DNA of 13,257 nt from Treponema sp. (GCA_031290475.1 JAITNM010000033.1:1-13257), one strand, 5' to 3'. Counted from the stretch's first letter, positions 6,149 through 13,257 are shown. Made by a program: numbers and translations. Notes: a model not told the origin generated them from the sequence alone.

Positions 6149-6223
6149 GCAATTCACCCAGCAATTCCAAATTCAAACGAAGACATTGAAATTTTGCCTT
6201 GAAAAATTTACTTGGGGTCCTGT

Positions 6224-6238
6224 GCAACCTTCGGTTGC
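6224..6238. repeat. Mini-hairpin GCAACC-TTC-GGTTGC, present only in repeat copy B
   Basis: A perfect 6-bp stem with a 3-nt loop, sitting inside the 16-nt indel that distinguishes copy B from copy A. Confidence 0.5.
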
Positions 6239-6245
6239 TTGGCCG

Positions 6246-6289
6246 AAAAAAACACGGGTCCTCCCGGTGGTCCCGCCCGTGTTTTTTTC
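6246..6289. terminator. Bidirectional intrinsic terminator-like hairpin inside repeat copy B
   Basis: AAAAAAA-ACACGGG-...-CCCGTGT-TTTTTTT; here the stem is perfectly paired. It lies downstream of the flavoprotein gene on the minus strand. Confidence 0.5.
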
Positions 6290-6460
6290 GCCGCCACCCC
6301 TCAAGTACGTTATTGGGGCACTTTTTACGCCGGTTAATACTATGAATTGCAGCCTTATTGGGTAAGGAATCACTGAAAAAACTGGAGTTGGCCCGTAAAA
6401 ACCGGTTAATTTTCTGAATTGCGAATTGTTGCAATTCACCATTTAATCCTGCATGTGTTC

Positions 6461-7173: not shown

Positions 7174-7563
7174 ATGAAGCAATGGCTGTTTTTTCTGGTT
7201 GTTCCGGTCCTTTTTGCAAGCTGCGGCGGTGATAGCTGGAATGATTCTTCTTACTTTAGTTATGACCTTGTGGGAAAATGGGAATCCGCGCCTATCGGCT
7301 ATTTCGATTACTGGGGCGTTCTGGAGATAGACTATAACAAAATTACGATAACCGGGTACAGCGGTTACGGCCCATCAACTCCTTTTGCGGAATTTACCAG
7401 AAATGTGCCCCTTGAAGGTTACTCCGAAGAGGGGAAGATATTTATTAAGGACCGGGGTTCCTGGCAGGCAGGACTGCCCTATGCGTACTGGAAGGACGCT
7501 GTGGGAGGAGGACACCTAACCTTCACTTTTGGCGGCAGAGAAGAAACCCTGCATAAAGAATGA
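7174..7563 (+). CDS. Small lipoprotein of unknown function
   Basis: Signal peptide MKQWLFFLVVPVLFASC with an LFASC lipobox; AAGGAGG RBS 6 nt upstream. Confidence 0.7.
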   Translation: MKQWLFFLVVPVLFASCGGDSWNDSSYFSYDLVGKWESAPIGYFDYWGVLEIDYNKITITGYSGYGPSTPFAEFTRNVPLEGYSEEGKIFIKDRGSWQAGLPYAYWKDAVGGGHLTFTFGGREETLHKE

Positions 7564-7746
7564 AGAAGGTATCTGCGCCGGAAAGTCTGGTACCCTGTAA
7601 ATACTAAATGGCAAGGTAGAACAAAAAAAATTTACCACTGACCTCGCAGACACCACAGACTTGTTGTCCGAAATCTTTGTCCGCGTGGTCTGTGGTTAAT
7701 CCGAACTTGGAATTAAAAAAATTCTCCATCTTTTTCAAAATTCCAC

Positions 7747-7797
7747 TTGACATATTGTACTAGTTCATTTACGATTGTACTAGATGAATAGTACAAT
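7747..7797 (+). promoter_or_regulatory. Promoter (TTGACA-17-TACGAT) plus candidate GntR operator: ATTGTACTAG x2 direct (7754, 7774) and an inverted partner TAGTACAAT (7789)
   Basis: -35 at 7747-7752 and -10 at about 7770-7775. The inverted repeat ATTGTACTA-N6-TAGTACAAT spans the ATG at 7784, and a third copy sits 20 bp upstream. The GTAC core fits the GntR-family operator pattern. Confidence 0.5.
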
Positions 7798-8194
7798 TCT
7801 TGAACCGGGGATAAGCTTCTCTTTGGACCAGGAAAACGGGGTGCCGATTTACCGTCAGGTGATTCAGCAGATCGAGTACGCCATCCTTTCGGGGCGGATG
7901 AGCTGCGGGGACAAGCTCCCCACCATCCGGTCTTTGGCGGTGGAACTCAGGATCAACCCCAACACCATCGCCAAGGCCTACAACGAGCTTGAAATTCGGG
8001 GCATTGTGAGCACCCAGGTGGGAAGCGGTACCTTCATCTCCGACAAGAAACCGGAAGGGGAAGCGGATGTCCGGAAGACGAAGATCCTGGGGATCTTTCA
8101 CCGGTTCATCCAGGATATGGCGGACCTGGGGGTTGACCGGGCCGATGTTGCCGAAATGTGCCGGTCATTAGAGGCCGGTATAAAGGAGAAATAG
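7784..8194 (+). CDS. GntR-family transcriptional regulator, YtrA-like subfamily (short C-terminal domain)
   Basis: N-terminal winged HTH PIYRQVIQQIEYAILSG...KLPTIRSLAVELRINPNTIAKAYNELEIRGIVSTQVGSGTF. The 136-aa length is typical of the YtrA subfamily that controls adjacent ABC transporters. Confidence 0.85.
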   Translation: MNSTILEPGISFSLDQENGVPIYRQVIQQIEYAILSGRMSCGDKLPTIRSLAVELRINPNTIAKAYNELEIRGIVSTQVGSGTFISDKKPEGEADVRKTKILGIFHRFIQDMADLGVDRADVAEMCRSLEAGIKEK

Positions 8195-8196
8195 GG

Positions 8197-9348
8197 ATGT
8201 TTCTTAAAAAACCAAATGAAGGGACGGAAAAGCGCTTGGGGGAGAGGCATATCGAAAAAACGCCCCTCGTAAAGAAACGCGCAAAACGGGAAAAGCGGCG
8301 GGATTTTTCAATTGGCATCGCCGGAATCAGTCTTTTGGTGATTCTCATGCTCTTTGTCATTGCCGTGGGCCTGTACCGGGGCGCCCTGCCTTCCCTGATC
8401 GAAATGGCGGTTTTGGTGTGCGTCCCGGCAGCGGTAATGGTACTCATGATCTTCTGGCCCAGGTGGCCGGGGGGCATTAAGATAGGGGTTTTGGTGATCT
8501 GCGCCGTGGCCGTTTCAGGATACCCCGATTTGGCCCTGGCCGTTATTTTTGCCGCCCTGGCGGTGTTTGTGGCGCCCTCTTTACAGAAGGCCGAGGAATG
8601 GGAACGGGCGATAGTGCTCCGGTTCGGGAAGTTCCACGGGGTGCGGGGGCCGGGGCTCTTCTTCCTTATTCCGCTGGCGGACCGGGTGGCCAGTGTGGTG
8701 GACATCCGCATCAGGGTAACGGATTTTTCCGCCCAGGAAACGTTGACCAGAGATTCCGTGACGGTTACGGTGGACGCCCTCTGTTTCTGGCTGGTCTGGG
8801 ACCCGGAAAAGGCGATCCTGGAAGTTGAGAATTACAACGACGCAGTGGTACTGTCTTCCAAGACGGCGCTCAGAAACGCGGTGAGCAGTAACGATCTTTC
8901 CACGTTCTTGCAGCACGGAGAAATTATCGCGAATCAGATCCAGGAAGAGGTTGACCGGAAAACTACCGAGTGGGGCATCACGGTGCAGCACATCGAGATC
9001 ACCGACATACAGATCCCCGGGGCGTTGCAGGATTCCCTTTCCAGGGTGGCCCAGGCGGAACGGGAAAAGAAGAGCCGGGTGCTCCTGGCCGAGGCGGAGA
9101 TCGAGATTGCGGGGAAACTACAGGAAGCGGTGGAGATCTACGCCAGGAACGAGCCAGCCATGAAGCTCAAGATCCTCTCAATTCTGAACGAGGGGCTCAA
9201 GGCGGGGAACTCCATGATGCTGGTCCCCAGTTCCATGGCCGAGGAGCTTAAAACAAAGGATATTTTCGGGCTTGAAGCATTAACCGAACTGCGGCAGCAC
9301 AAGGCCGATGCCAATAAGACTGATAAAGACAAAGGAGAAATAAAATGA
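8197..9348 (+). CDS. SPFH/band-7 (stomatin/HflKC-like) membrane protein with an N-terminal basic segment and about 3-4 TM helices
   Basis: SPFH core EWERAIVLRFGKFHGVRGPGLFFLIPLADRV...VDIRIRV...TRDSVTVTVDA, then a coiled-coil-like EAEIEIAGKLQEA. ATG at 8197 has an AAGGAG RBS, so it is preferred over the tracked GTG at 8158. The stop overlaps the next start (ATGA). Confidence 0.8.
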   Translation: MFLKKPNEGTEKRLGERHIEKTPLVKKRAKREKRRDFSIGIAGISLLVILMLFVIAVGLYRGALPSLIEMAVLVCVPAAVMVLMIFWPRWPGGIKIGVLVICAVAVSGYPDLALAVIFAALAVFVAPSLQKAEEWERAIVLRFGKFHGVRGPGLFFLIPLADRVASVVDIRIRVTDFSAQETLTRDSVTVTVDALCFWLVWDPEKAILEVENYNDAVVLSSKTALRNAVSSNDLSTFLQHGEIIANQIQEEVDRKTTEWGITVQHIEITDIQIPGALQDSLSRVAQAEREKKSRVLLAEAEIEIAGKLQEAVEIYARNEPAMKLKILSILNEGLKAGNSMMLVPSSMAEELKTKDIFGLEALTELRQHKADANKTDKDKGEIK

Positions 9349-10031
9349 CCGTAGTAAAAGCGGTAAACGTGGTTAAAGATTATTCTCTAAACGGGATTGA
9401 AATTCATGCGCTGCGGGGGGTAAACCTGGAATTTCAGAAAGGTGAATTCGCCGCCATTGCGGGTCCTTCGGGGAGCGGGAAGTCCACCTTTTTGCATCTG
9501 GCAGGATGTCTGGACACTATCACTTCCGGCAATATCAAAGTAAGAAACGAGGATGTGGAGAAACTTTCCAAAAAACAGCTTGCCCTGCTCAGACGGCACA
9601 GCATCGGTTTTATCTTCCAGGCCTATAATCTTATTCCGGTGCTTTCGGTGGAAGAAAACATCGGCTTCCCCCTGACGCTCCTGGGGGTGGATAAAAAGGA
9701 AATTCAGGAACGGGTAGAAAAGGTGCTGATCCAGGTCGGCCTGGGCGGCATGGAAAAACGGCGGCCCAAGGAAATGTCCGGCGGCCAGCAGCAGCGGGTG
9801 GCCATTGCCCGGGCCCTGGTGAAACGGCCCGCACTAATCCTGGCGGACGAGCCCACGGCAAACCTGGACTCCAAAACCGGCCGGGAAATTCTGGAAATCA
9901 TGGTGAGACTCAATCAGGATGAAGGAACCACCTTTATCTTCTCCACCCATGACAGCATGGTCATGGAATTTGCCCGCCGGGTTGTGTTTATCCGGGATGG
10001 GCAAATTGAAAAAGAGGAACGGAAATCCTGA
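9345..10031 (+). CDS. ABC transporter ATP-binding protein, MacB/LolD family
   Basis: Walker [10 protein letters not shown], signature [14 protein letters not shown], Walker [13 protein letters not shown]-loop STHD; 228 aa. Confidence 0.9.
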
Positions 10032-10052
10032 CGGATTTCTCAGGAGAAAGCA

Positions 10053-11795
10053 ATGAAGTTACAGGCAATATGGGAATTAAAGCGTATGGCGTTCAGAAAT
10101 CTGGCCCGGCACAAGGTAAAGACCACCCTGTCCATTTTGGCGATAGCGGTGAGCGTGGCGGTTTATATTTTCATGGATAGCTGGATGGTGGGCATGATTG
10201 TGGATTCCGAGCGGAATATCGTAAGCTACGAAACCGGAGCGGCAAAGCTCCAGACCAAAATGTACTTTGAAAAACTCGACGACAGGCCCATGTACGAGAA
10301 TTTTGATAACTGGGAACAATACGCCGAGGCTCTGGACAGGGCGGGTTTTGACGCCGCCCCCCATTTCGTTTTTACGGGGACCCTCTATTCGGAAACAGGC
10401 GCCGCCCCGGTTGTCTTTAACGCCGTTGACCCGGTCCTGGATCCTAAGGTCCTGCGGGTGTCCGAGGCTCTTGACGCGGGCCGTTACCTTAAAAGCGGCG
10501 CCTTTGAAATCATCCTGGGAAACATGACCGCTGATAAACTTAAGGTAGGGCTTCCCATGCGGCCCACCAGAGGGGAACTGGAAGGGGAAATTCTCCCCCA
10601 GCTTCCCCCTTCGGAGCATGATTTTGTCCGGGGGCTTTATCAGCCTGTAGGGAAAAAATCAGGCAGCATCTACGCTTCCAAAAAGACGGCGCTTCCCCAG
10701 GGGGAAGAACTCTCCCCTGAGAGAGTACGGCTCCTCATCAAACGGGACCTCTCCCAGGCCGACAAGGACCGCTATTGGGCGCTGCTGGCGGAAACCGGCC
10801 GCATGAATGTGCGGATCTCCACGGTTATCGACATAAAGGCCCCACCCGATTCAATACGTCAGGACAAGTTTGAAGCGGATCTGGCGCCGGCCTTGAGCGC
10901 CGAAGAAATGGGATTTTTCAAAAGGGTCTATGAATATGATGAGCTTACCGGCGCCTGGCATTTAATTGACGATGATCCTGTGGTCTTGGGGGAACTATTA
11001 CAGGCCATGGTGCGGATCGATTATTCCGGGGCCATACGCCATGTGAACCAGCTTATTTCAGCGGTGGTCGTGGGAACCATTAATGCCCCCAACCCCCAGC
11101 TCAACAACAACATGGCCTTCATTCCCCTGGACGCGCTTCAGGACGACGCGGGGCTTATGCTGGATGGACATGTGACGGAACTAATTGTCCGGCAAAAGAA
11201 GGCCGATGATTCCCGGATTCCCGGCCTTGCCGAATCCGCGCCGGTAATAAAAACGGCCCTGGAAAAAGAGCTCGGCGCTCCCCTGCCTTCCAGCCTGGAT
11301 GTCTTCGGCTGGGAAGGATACGCCAGGGATTTTATCGCCGCTTCCGCCGGGGATAACTGGACCACCCGGATCATAGCAGTGATACTTTTTATCCTCTCAT
11401 TCCTGGGGATTGCCAATACCATGCTCCTGGCCATTCTGGAGCGGACCAAGGAAATCGGCATGATGCGGGCCCAGGGCATGACCGACGGCCAGCTTGTCTT
11501 CACCCTGATGATCGAAGCGGGCATGGTGGGGATTATTGGTTCAGCCATCGGCATACTCGCGGGCTGTCTTGTCAATATACCCATGGTTGAATACGGCATA
11601 GACTTTTCCGCCATGACCGAGACCATGGGGGGCAATATCGGTTACCGAGTGAACGGGGTGTTCCGCTCGGCCTGGAATGTCCCGGTGATCATCGCCACAG
11701 GCATTGTGGCCACGATCCTTTCAGCGGTCATGGCCTTTTTCCCCACCCGGCGCGCCCTCAAGATGCCGGTCACCGAAAGTTTACGGTTTGAATAA
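10053..11795 (+). CDS. ABC transporter permease, FtsX/MacB/LolCE family, with a large periplasmic domain of roughly 370 aa
   Basis: TM1 LSILAIAVSVAVYIF, a long hydrophilic domain, then a C-terminal FtsX module (LAILERTKEIGMMRAQGMT plus 3 TM helices). GGAGAAAG RBS. Confidence 0.85.
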   Translation: MKLQAIWELKRMAFRNLARHKVKTTLSILAIAVSVAVYIFMDSWMVGMIVDSERNIVSYETGAAKLQTKMYFEKLDDRPMYENFDNWEQYAEALDRAGFDAAPHFVFTGTLYSETGAAPVVFNAVDPVLDPKVLRVSEALDAGRYLKSGAFEIILGNMTADKLKVGLPMRPTRGELEGEILPQLPPSEHDFVRGLYQPVGKKSGSIYASKKTALPQGEELSPERVRLLIKRDLSQADKDRYWALLAETGRMNVRISTVIDIKAPPDSIRQDKFEADLAPALSAEEMGFFKRVYEYDELTGAWHLIDDDPVVLGELLQAMVRIDYSGAIRHVNQLISAVVVGTINAPNPQLNNNMAFIPLDALQDDAGLMLDGHVTELIVRQKKADDSRIPGLAESAPVIKTALEKELGAPLPSSLDVFGWEGYARDFIAASAGDNWTTRIIAVILFILSFLGIANTMLLAILERTKEIGMMRAQGMTDGQLVFTLMIEAGMVGIIGSAIGILAGCLVNIPMVEYGIDFSAMTETMGGNIGYRVNGVFRSAWNVPVIIATGIVATILSAVMAFFPTRRALKMPVTESLRFE

Positions 11796-11804
11796 GGATG
11801 AAGA

Positions 11805-13097
11805 ATGAGTATGAGTAATACTTACAAACAGGGCGGCGCGGGTTCTTTTGGAACCTTGGTAAAGATCGCCTACCGGAATATATGGCGGAATATGCGGCGG
11901 ACGATCCTCTGCATTACCGCAGTGGGCATAGCGGTGTTTTTCATCATTGTTATGCAGTCGATGATGGGCGGGATGAACAGCGGCATCGAAAAAGTGGTGA
12001 GGGTTTTTGATACCGGACACGTCAGCGCCGCCTCCACAGACTACGAGGCGGAAAAGGAATATATGCCCGTTCAATATCCTGTGGGGAACGGCGGACCTTT
12101 CAGTGAACTGGAGGCGGAGATTAAGGCCATCCCCGGAGTCAGGGCGGTTTTCCCCCGGATCAACGCGTACGCCACCCTACAGGACAGTACGAAAAAACAC
12201 GCCCTCCTGTGGGGGCTTGATGTGGAAGCGGAAACCGCCCTGAACGCCTTTAACCTTACTACCCAGGGCAATGGCCTCTTGGAAGGCAGGTACCCCGCCG
12301 CAAACGCCAACGAATGCGCCATAGGGATCGGTATGGCGGAGAAGGCGGGCTTCAAAATCGGGGATCGTATTCCCCTGAAAACCGTTTCCGCCCAGTTCTC
12401 CGACAAAATGTGGAGTCCCGAAATAACCGGCATCTTTAAATTCGATTATCTCAAATACGATGAAGACGCGATTCTGGTGGACTTCCGCAGGCTTCAGCGG
12501 CTCCTCGTTCTGGGGGACGCAACCCAGCAGATTTTTGTCTATGCCGAAAAGGAAACCCAGAGCAAGGCCATCGCGGCCCAGGTGCAAAAAATTCTGAACG
12601 GACACGAAGGGTCCGATGTGGTCCGGGACTGGCGGGACAATTACTTTGTTGTCATGATGCAGCAGAGTATGGCTATTTTCATTGTGATTGAACTCATCTT
12701 TCTTATCGTGGCCAGCTTCCTCATCATCAATACTGTGGTAATGATCATCCACGAGCGGATCAAGGAAATCGGCATGATGGGAAGCCTGGGCATGACCAGG
12801 GGGGAAATCGTGAAGGTCTTTTTCTTTGAATCGGTTTTTTTGAGTATCTTCGGTTCTCTCGCGGGGGTTCTGCTTGGGGGCATCGTCACCGGCGTCGGCT
12901 CCCTCTTTCCATTGGACTTCAGCGCCATGAGCGGGGGGTTCAAGGAATATCCCATATCGGCAACCCTGTTCCTGGAATTTGGTCCGGGCATACTCGCCAT
13001 GGGTTTTTTCTTCGGCGTAATAATTGCGTCGGTATGCACCCTGTTCCCTTCGCTCAAAAGCGCGTTCGTAGAGCCTGTCGAGGCTTTGCGGAGATAG
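11805..13097 (+). CDS. ABC transporter permease, FtsX/MacB/LolCE family (second, shorter paralogue)
   Basis: TM1 ILCITAVGIAVFFIIV, a periplasmic domain of roughly 230 aa, and a C-terminal FtsX module (IHERIKEIGMMGSLGMT plus 3 TM helices). AAGGA RBS 7 nt upstream. Confidence 0.85.
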   Translation: MSMSNTYKQGGAGSFGTLVKIAYRNIWRNMRRTILCITAVGIAVFFIIVMQSMMGGMNSGIEKVVRVFDTGHVSAASTDYEAEKEYMPVQYPVGNGGPFSELEAEIKAIPGVRAVFPRINAYATLQDSTKKHALLWGLDVEAETALNAFNLTTQGNGLLEGRYPAANANECAIGIGMAEKAGFKIGDRIPLKTVSAQFSDKMWSPEITGIFKFDYLKYDEDAILVDFRRLQRLLVLGDATQQIFVYAEKETQSKAIAAQVQKILNGHEGSDVVRDWRDNYFVVMMQQSMAIFIVIELIFLIVASFLIINTVVMIIHERIKEIGMMGSLGMTRGEIVKVFFFESVFLSIFGSLAGVLLGGIVTGVGSLFPLDFSAMSGGFKEYPISATLFLEFGPGILAMGFFFGVIIASVCTLFPSLKSAFVEPVEALRR

Positions 13098-13115
13098 GAA
13101 GAAGATAAATGGGGT

Positions 13116-13183
13116 CCGCGAATTACGCGAATTGATGTGAATTAAGATAGTGAATAATTCGCGTTCATTTGCGTAATTCGCGG
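13116..13183. repeat. Nested inverted repeat: [CGCGAATT]x2 ... [AATTCGCG]x2; outer arms CCGCGAATTACGC / GCGTAATTCGCGG
   Basis: 13-bp perfect outer arms (13116-13128 and 13171-13183); inner arms ACGCGAATT / AATTCGCGT (13125-13133 and 13157-13165); followed by an AT-rich stretch. Candidate terminator for the ABC operon and/or operator for the downstream gene. Confidence 0.5.
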
Positions 13184-13216
13184 ATAAAATTTTGATATTC
13201 ATTTTGGAGGTTTATG

Positions 13217-13257
13217 ATGAAAAAAACAGTATTTCTATCGGTCTTAATGGCAGTATC
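13217..13257 (+). CDS. 5' end of a signal-peptide protein, truncated by the window edge
   Basis: GGAGG RBS 6 nt before ATG at 13217; MKKTVFLSVLMAV looks like a signal peptide; only 13 codons are visible. Confidence 0.35.
   Translation, partial: MKKTVFLSVLMAV

Follow-up and report, generated by a model that had tools for sequence, protein, structure and literature searches.

Stomatin-type proteins of the SPFH family are usually discussed only alongside NfeD; in stomatin and in QmcA the SPFH domain is cytoplasmic, and to our knowledge few clients of bacterial SPFH scaffolds are known beyond the HflK/C-FtsH case. NfeD is the usual operon partner of prokaryotic stomatins, and in a broad survey of SPFH operons in prokaryotes NfeD is mentioned, and ATP-binding cassette (ABC) transporters and GntR regulators are not (PMC2636767). 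Human stomatin forms a dome ~140-160 Å wide and 100 Å high, which encloses AQP1 or UT-B (PMC12407830). Among GntR regulators, operators follow a GT..AC palindrome rule (PMC4494728), and control of the YtrA-family repressor MbrR has been shown to work through its capture by the cognate ABC transporter's ATPase (bioRxiv 10.64898/2026.02.18.706565). Spirochaetes are diderms without LolB, and in Borrelia the lp38 genes BBJ23-BBJ29, which encode a MacB-like transporter, a LolA-like protein and an Omp85 barrel, have been proposed as an export system (PMC13078400). Here we describe a stretch of 13,257 nt from Treponema sp. (GCA_031290475.1, JAITNM010000033.1:1-13257; hereafter the window), which carries five genes and the start of a sixth from a seven-gene operon of Spirochaetota. 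In this operon a stomatin-type SPFH gene lies between the gene for a YtrA-type GntR repressor and the genes of a type VII ABC transporter, and genes for a LolA-like carrier and an outer-membrane barrel follow in related loci. The whole may constitute a repressor-controlled, Lol-like trans-envelope exporter to which a cytoplasmic stomatin dome is accessory.

Five complete open reading frames (ORFs) were located on the + strand of the window and their domains were assigned by Pfam and NCBIfam. The first (7784-8194) encodes a YtrA-subfamily GntR repressor of 136 aa (PF00392, E-value 4.6e-18, residues 23-85) and is followed by genes for a stomatin-type SPFH protein, or slipin, of 383 aa (8197-9348; Band_7/SPFH PF01145, E-value 4.5e-36), a type VII ABC ATPase of the LolD/MacB/FtsE/YtrE class of 228 aa (9345-10031; ABC_tran PF00005, E-value 5e-34), a long FtsX permease of 580 aa (10053-11795; MacB_PCD at residues 24-166 and FtsX at 440-572) and a short FtsX permease of 430 aa (11805-13097; MacB_PCD and FtsX). 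Only 2 nt separate the GntR stop codon from the SPFH start, an ATG at 8197 preceded by AAGGAG (a mechanical ORF list instead gives a GTG at 8158). The SPFH and ATPase genes share an ATGA start/stop overlap, and the gaps from the ATPase gene to the long permease gene and from the long to the short permease gene are 21 and 9 nt. These five genes had been described in an original prediction, made by a model from the DNA alone, as one tightly packed unit with spacings of 2-21 nt and an ATGA overlap. The ORFs, their domains and the spacing read from the sequence all agreed with this description, as did the single strong promoter before the GntR gene and the short gaps throughout. On the + strand in the cluster interior no promoter-like site was found, and terminator-like sites were no commoner than in shuffled sequences. 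There was likewise no sign of a separate promoter for the SPFH gene, which the prediction itself had said would count against it, the sole strong promoter being that before the GntR gene. The prediction erred in ending the unit at 13097 and in treating the system as one of five genes. A sixth gene (13214-13257, + strand, cut by the window end) begins at ATG 13214 or 13217, where a ribosome-binding site (GGAGG) precedes ATGATG and a signal-peptide-like beginning, M(M)KKTVFLSVLMAV, and related loci have seven genes; from its position in those loci the sixth would encode the LolA-like carrier. Both this carrier and the outer-membrane barrel had been missed.

Conservation of the gene order was surveyed from both ends of the presumed partnership. 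For the forward survey, in which one genome per species was used, an SPFH alignment served as seed; 150 relatives were identified with family-specific patterns and the best 80 were retained. All of these 80 loci were from Spirochaetota, the nearest relatives of the SPFH protein being from termite-gut Treponema and Breznakiella. The seven operon proteins were mapped onto these loci by tblastn, and forward counts refer to the 75 distinct loci in which the SPFH ORF was complete. The reverse survey was a metagenome scan seeded with the long permease, which yielded 40 orthologous loci, 30 of them with enough upstream DNA. The gene order recurs in ~110 informative spirochaete loci. Breznakiella homolactica and Sediminispirochaeta bajacaliforniensis have these five genes and, behind them, two more, which encode a PF17131 LolA_like protein and then a protein of ~390-410 aa, and in the forward survey the order GntR-SPFH-ATPase-FtsX-FtsX-LolA_like-barrel was complete wherever the contig was long enough. 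The GntR gene lay directly 5' of the SPFH gene in nearly every locus with upstream DNA. The ABC genes adjoined the SPFH gene in 61/75 distinct loci from the SPFH side, while from the permease side the SPFH gene preceded the ATPase gene in 29/30, and the gene order is thus neither rare nor unique to this genome, either of which the prediction had named as grounds for abandoning it. Even a divergent ABC lineage (L049, L050, L057, L065 and L078), whose ATPase is ~50% and whose FtsX proteins are ~30% identical and which has two permeases of about 415 aa, still stands behind GntR-SPFH. The GntR-SPFH junction was overlapping in 60/92 loci and is the tightest pair of the operon; at the SPFH-ATPase junction an overlap was present in 39/79 loci and a distance of 25 nt or less in 52/79. 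Two peculiarities were noted in passing. At L110:12553-22550 the GntR, SPFH, ATPase and both permease genes were present and the LolA-like and barrel genes were not found by tblastn within 10 kb downstream. On contig BNUT01000001.1 the whole operon occurred twice in inverted orientation (L025 and L026, 24104-41072 and 43240-60208) with identical tblastn coordinates and identities, which points either to a recent inverted duplication or to an artefact of assembly.

The transporter genes were compared with curated families and solved structures. The best NCBIfam matches of the ATPase were partial ones to DarD, LolD, FtsE, DevA and MacB, all below curated cut-offs, and its PDB matches were MJ0796, LolD, MacB, BceA and YtrE. 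The short permease matched LolE (3e-13) and LolC best over residues 103-429, then LolF, and the long permease matched YtrF, LolF, LolE and MacB over its C-terminal transmembrane (TM) part. Together with the Pfam domains these matches upheld the earlier assignment to a type VII (MacB/LolCDE-like) ABC system with two unlike FtsX permeases; two unlike permeases (580 and 430 aa) with one ATPase is also the Lol-type composition. None of the five window proteins reached a curated NCBIfam equivalog cut-off, and the canonical Lol models scored low, with 220 against 307.75 for LolD (TIGR02211) and, for lolCE (TIGR02212), 111 for the short and 57 for the long permease against 362.45. Across its family the long permease ranges from 504 to 616 aa, with a variable insertion in the periplasmic domain; residues ~170-430 make up this large periplasmic insertion, which had no Pfam match and of which ~60-75 residues are missing in some lineages. 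The product of gene 6 in related loci matched PF17131 LolA_like (E-value 5e-48, 164 bits), with only a weak MucB_RseB match besides and no match to the true LolA family. Signal peptides of the ordinary kind are present in the LolA-like proteins, and since a lipobox is absent in 53/55 copies they are carriers of the soluble LolA type and not anchored receptors of the LolB type. The gene 7 product, of ~390-410 aa, belongs to no Pfam family and has the fold of an 18-strand porin-like outer-membrane barrel.

The SPFH protein scored 125 bits against PF01145 (cut-off 23.6) over residues 131-301 and was closest to the stomatin branch, with E-values of 1e-37 to human stomatin, 2e-33 to PH1511 and 2e-26 to QmcA. 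It was thus nearer to stomatin than to the HflK/C, prohibitin or flotillin branches, with weaker matches to HflK (1e-9), HflC (4e-5) and prohibitin (2e-4), and for HflK/C it fell below the NCBIfam cut-offs. The human stomatin matches are solved 16-mer structures; the conserved C-terminal block LNEGLKAGNSMMLVP aligns to the stomatin C-terminal/cap region, and the conserved motif NSMMLVP aligns to stomatin NSTIVFP. The protein is laid out as a lysine/arginine-rich (K/R-rich) N-tail, four TM helices (~residues 37-128), the SPFH domain and, at the C-terminus, a helical/cap region. Having four hydrophobic helices ahead of its SPFH domain, and not a single hairpin or a single TM anchor, it accords with the multi-TM SPFH protein originally proposed. 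Across the family 36 proteins have four TM helices and 37 have two, one was scored with three and one was truncated, making the number even in 73/75. Mean K+R counts were 7-10 in the N-tail, ~1 per loop and 6-7 just after the last TM helix. Because the TM number is even and both ends are K/R-rich, the SPFH domain is predicted by the positive-inside rule to face the cytoplasm, and any contact with the transporter should therefore be at its membrane-embedded or ATPase side. The original prediction had envisaged contact between the periplasmic domains of the permeases and a face of the SPFH protein on that same side, a picture that conflicts with the even TM number and the K/R-rich termini. No NfeD family member was among the Pfam matches of the window genes, nor among the genes called within 8 kb in L001-L003, the only other loci scanned for it.

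Upstream of the GntR gene lies a sigma-70-type promoter (7747-7775, + strand), with -35 TTGACA at 7747-7752, a 17-nt spacer and -10 TACGAT at 7770-7775. With a 10/12 match it was the best and only strong promoter in 7500-13257, and its register was kept in 70 distinct related loci with the consensus TTGACA-N17-TATtAT. The GntR ATG at 7784 is 8 nt past the -10 with no Shine-Dalgarno sequence before it; because of this short distance the operon transcript is probably leaderless, with a transcription start that we infer from the promoter. An exact copy of TTGTACTAG occurs at 7755 and a further one at 7775, and an inverted copy at 7788-7796 (- strand) falls within GntR codons 2-4. The predicted operator O1 (7755-7768, + strand), TTGTACTAGTTCAT, is a near-palindrome of the 14-bp family consensus TTGTACTAGTACAA and sits in the promoter spacer. 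The predicted operator O2 (7775-7796, + strand) is the inverted repeat TTGTACTAG-ATG-AAT-AGTACAA, which runs over the transcription start, the start codon and GntR codons 2-4 and has the family form TTGTACTA-N6-TAGTACAA. Both agree with the GT..AC palindrome rule. The promoter/operator consensus TTGACATATTGTACTAGTaCATTTATtATTGTACTAGATGAATAGTACAAT stands at a fixed register in the 70 distinct loci with most positions 80-99% conserved, compared with proteins that are only 50-75% identical. GntR codons 2-4 (AAT AGT ACA, N-S-T) show ~90% or more nucleotide conservation across loci, and the conserved regulator N-terminus MNST is partly a half-site of the predicted operator. In L009, L014, L016, L021, L030 and L069, mostly GntR-SPFH units without ABC genes, O1 has been lost and O2 kept, which suggests altered (weaker or single-site) repression there.

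The regulator could be aligned from end to end with the YtrA-type regulators Lmo0741, Lmo2241 and Lin1836, which are ~125-134 aa long, the YtrA-type structures matched in this way being 4r1h, 4ham, 3neu and 3by6, as was expected from its earlier classification as a YtrA-type GntR protein. Like other members of this group it consists of a winged helix-turn-helix and a short (~50 aa) C-terminal part with no effector domain, and it is encoded in an operon with an ABC transporter and with predicted GT..AC palindromic sites at its own promoter. The natural reading is that GntR would autorepress a leaderless operon through the predicted O1 and O2.

These parts can be joined in a single scheme, in which we place moderate confidence, of a YtrA-repressed, Lol-like trans-envelope exporter encoded by a seven-gene Spirochaetota operon, with a cytoplasmic stomatin dome as an accessory. 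The YtrA-type GntR would bind the two predicted TTGTACTAG-based operators, in the spacer and at the transcription start/start codon, and so repress its own leaderless polycistronic mRNA. The type VII ABC transporter, formed from the LolD-like ATPase and the unlike pair of LolC/LolE-like FtsX proteins, would extract a hydrophobic or lipid-anchored cargo from the inner membrane, the soluble periplasmic LolA-like protein would carry it, and the 18-strand porin-like barrel would receive or pass it at the outer membrane. By analogy with the stomatin and HflK/C cages, the stomatin-type SPFH protein would most likely assemble with itself into a dome at the inner membrane, on the cytoplasmic side; its conserved C-terminal segment is at most suggestive of this. 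The dome would confine or organize the transporter from the ATPase side, or else the patch of lipid that surrounds the transporter. From the known dimensions of LolCDE, a type VII transporter with its ATPase dimer would fit a stomatin dome by size. That the scaffold physically organizes the transporter is plausible, and an SPFH-transporter partnership is favored because the linkage persists in both directions, across deep divergence and two transporter lineages, and because overlaps are frequent. With MbrR as the model, induction of the present operon could plausibly come about through capture of the repressor by the ATPase, and it is conceivable that the cytoplasm-facing SPFH protein takes part in repressor capture. 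We regard as distinctly doubtful the fuller version, in which the dome would enclose the ATPase side of the Lol-like transporter and also capture the YtrA repressor, coupling transporter load to transcription of its own operon.

Several observations weigh against a dedicated SPFH-transporter partnership or narrow its basis. Physical contact or encagement is itself something that we infer. In 14 loci GntR-SPFH is followed by unrelated genes, often on the other strand. In L115 the GntR gene runs straight into the ATPase gene, with a full transporter and no SPFH gene. Since such loci exist on both sides, neither the SPFH gene nor the transporter is strictly needed in cis. The SPFH proteins of the ABC-less loci keep 132/141 of the columns that are at least 90% conserved in ABC-linked SPFH proteins, and the sole column falling below 60% is a conservative I/V change; no interface-specific relaxation was visible in these proteins, a result which neither supports nor excludes contact. 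The AlphaFold2 model of the SPFH protein (monomer, 14-sequence alignment) was poor, with a pLDDT (predicted confidence score) of 55, and helix positions alone were used from it. All sampling was within one phylum, Spirochaetota, and most of the genomes are incomplete metagenome-assembled genomes. The tie between SPFH protein and transporter that the original prediction had put forward therefore stands as a strongly conserved linkage and falls as an exclusive one, with 14 loci lacking the ABC genes and one lacking the SPFH gene. In a neighbor-joining tree all deep branches have the transporter and the 14 ABC-less loci are scattered within the termite-gut clade, and therefore the seven-gene form looks ancestral and the two-gene GntR-SPFH form secondary. 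L115 (metagenome contig Ga0209018_1005441, 1295-5026) is in effect a natural SPFH 'deletion mutant' whose sister loci L111, L113, L114 and L116 keep the SPFH gene.

The same facts bear on the question of which partner, if any, the SPFH protein serves. It may be a general membrane-stress or quality-control scaffold, comparable to B. subtilis YdjI and to flotillins, which is merely co-induced with the exporter and contacts neither partner specifically. We think this rather unlikely, though by a small margin the most probable of the alternatives. The module is separable both ways, in the ABC-less loci and in L115, interface-specific relaxation is not detectable, SPFH proteins are tied to envelope stress responses in other bacteria (PMC8581546, PMC11222466), and Bacillus YtrA operons respond to cell-envelope antibiotics (PMC12772383). 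A bystander role sits poorly, however, with a linkage as persistent as 29/30 loci from the permease side and 61/75 from the SPFH side, which survives deep ABC divergence, and with frequent start/stop overlaps with the ATPase gene; the coupling exceeds what loosely co-regulated genes usually show. Alternatively, and also unlikely in our judgment, the functional partner of the SPFH protein could be the YtrA repressor, with SPFH sensing the membrane state and tethering or releasing the repressor, and with the ABC, LolA-like and barrel genes as regulated cargo. GntR-SPFH is the invariant pair of nearly all loci, overlapping in 60/92 and standing as a two-gene unit in 14, the predicted orientation puts the SPFH domain on the same membrane side as the repressor, and SPFH proteins without ABC neighbors remain fully conserved. 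YtrA-type regulators have no effector domain (PMC4494728), and MbrR is controlled by membrane sequestration via a partner protein (bioRxiv 10.64898/2026.02.18.706565). That sole worked example nevertheless has an ABC ATPase and not an SPFH protein as its sequestering partner, L115 retains the GntR gene and the transporter without SPFH, and the first two genes of an autoregulated operon would stay paired after an operon split anyway.

Two further readings concern the membrane side of the SPFH protein and the identity of the exporter. A periplasmic SPFH cage around the periplasmic domains of the permeases, of the kind HflK/C forms with FtsH, would have that established precedent, HflK among the PDB matches and the conserved synteny behind it. 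It is nevertheless highly improbable given the even TM number in 73/75 proteins, the K/R-rich N-tail and post-TM segment with K/R-poor loops, which place both ends in the cytoplasm, and a sequence far closer to stomatin and QmcA than to HflK/C. Equally little credence is given to the ABC genes being the housekeeping LolCDE lipoprotein-release system. LolE and LolC are indeed the best solved relatives of the short permease, and two unlike permeases with a LolD-like ATPase, followed by the gene of a LolA-fold carrier, would suit it, but the Lol equivalog scores (LolD 220 against 307.75; lolCE 111 and 57 against 362) lie far below their cut-offs, the carrier belongs to PF17131 LolA_like and not to the LolA family, and the operon is repressor-controlled and ends with a porin-like barrel. 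The canonical Lol set of the related T. pallidum is moreover assigned elsewhere, to TP0580-0582 and TP0333. The Lol-like exporter with an accessory cytoplasmic dome is the reading that we carry forward.

Literature searches on SPFH with FtsX, MacB, YtrA or LolA-like proteins found no paper describing the combination, in line with the original prediction, to which no description of SPFH together with a type VII ABC system was known; the operon is built from known kinds of parts. A stomatin-type gene fixed across a phylum between a repressor gene and an inner-to-outer-membrane export route provides concrete candidate partners for SPFH, and the operon offers one of the rare cases in which a candidate client of a bacterial SPFH scaffold can be put to the test. 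It would also describe a second, inducible Lol-like pathway in spirochaetes, whose outer-membrane lipid and lipoprotein traffic is poorly understood. The predicted regulatory element is a very clean one, in which a leaderless promoter has two operators and the opening codons of the gene double as part of the second. Were the doubtful dome/repressor-capture reading true, it would provide the first bacterial SPFH cage with an operon-encoded transporter client and would give a diderm YtrA regulator its first effector mechanism.

The operon is surrounded by ordinary chromosomal genes, encoding a phosphoribosyltransferase-domain protein, RNase HII, rubrerythrin, an M23 peptidase, RecJ, an FMN reductase and a small lipoprotein, and the window contained no known RNAs or tRNAs. 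The small predicted lipoprotein (7174-7563; 129 aa, signal peptide ending LFASC) is encoded just upstream of the operon promoter and had no Pfam or NCBIfam matches; it is regarded as outside the conserved unit because the upstream neighbors differ in L001-L003. The short permease gene and gene 6 are 116 nt apart, and between them lies a hairpin of ~29 bp (13114-13184, + strand; free energy -44.9 kcal/mol, z -7.2, equaled in 0/200 shuffles, and also scored as inverted repeat I3), with an A/U-rich stretch 3' of it. As a conserved operon element it was rejected, being absent from all 132 related loci and hence genome-specific; it may be a genome-specific repeat, or an attenuator or processing site parting the expression of the inner-membrane genes from that of the periplasmic and outer-membrane genes. 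A sequence of ~170 nt is present twice in inverted orientation, at 2059-2226 and 6158-6341, 3.9 kb apart, the complementarity being 89% over 101 nt and 98% over 66 nt. Both copies are intergenic and flank the M23 peptidase-RecJ gene pair, and the short ORFs across them had no Pfam match and look non-coding; the two copies may represent an intergenic repeat, or else mark both ends of a segment that is invertible or mobile.

Three other identities were considered and set aside. A MacAB-TolC tripartite pump was rejected as both an adaptor (HlyD/MFP) and a TolC-like factor are absent. The T. pallidum genes TP0786-TP0789, suggested by the Pfam label 'TP_0789-like' and by PMC5015957, were rejected as the same operon: the models of TP0784-0786 correspond to LptC, LptA and an ABC protein, and TP0789, which is LolA-like, stands alone with an RND gene as its neighbor. 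As regards anti-phage defense, PADLOC returned only generic ABC/FtsX similarity and nothing for SPFH or GntR.

Compared with known systems, the operon shares part of its composition with each and differs from all. With stomatins and slipins (human stomatin, P. horikoshii PH1511, E. coli QmcA) the SPFH protein shares the Band_7/SPFH domain, its best subfamily matches, a C-terminal cap-like segment and a predicted cytoplasmic SPFH domain. It differs in its TM helices, which are full-length and number four (or two) where stomatins have one hairpin or a single TM, in having no NfeD partner in the window or in three Pfam-annotated related loci, and in being encoded between a YtrA repressor gene and type VII ABC genes. 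HflK/C-FtsH supplies the 'cage plus client' model, that of an SPFH scaffold which serves a single membrane machine and is bound to it both genetically and physically; whereas HflK/C is a periplasm-facing hetero-oligomer which encloses a protease, the present operon has a single SPFH gene whose product is predicted to be cytoplasmic in orientation and is only distantly related in sequence (HflK E-value 1e-9). The YtrA-type repressors with a cognate ABC transporter, B. subtilis ytrGABCDEF and S. salivarius MbrR-MbrAB, resemble it in a short effector-less GntR regulator encoded first and in palindromic operators at their own promoter, and YtrE and YtrF are among the solved relatives of the operon's ABC proteins. 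Those systems belong to monoderm Bacillota, however, and lack an SPFH protein, a LolA-like carrier and an outer-membrane barrel, whereas the present operon has two predicted operators, the second of which extends into the first codons of a gene that is probably leaderless.

For the export part, LolCDE-LolA has in common with the operon a type VII ABC transporter of two unlike FtsX permeases and one ATPase and a soluble LolA-fold carrier. Unlike it, the present operon falls below every Lol equivalog cut-off, has a PF17131 carrier, a long permease with a large variable insertion and an 18-strand barrel in place of LolB, is repressor-controlled and includes an SPFH gene. Borrelia BBJ23-BBJ29 likewise combines a MacB-like ABC transporter and a LolA-like protein in one cluster. 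It has a single permease gene (a homodimer), an Omp85-type barrel and two chaperones, features in which the present operon differs, and no SPFH or GntR gene is mentioned in its description (PMC13078400). With these differences, Borrelia BBJ23-BBJ29 is the nearest described relative of the export part of the operon.

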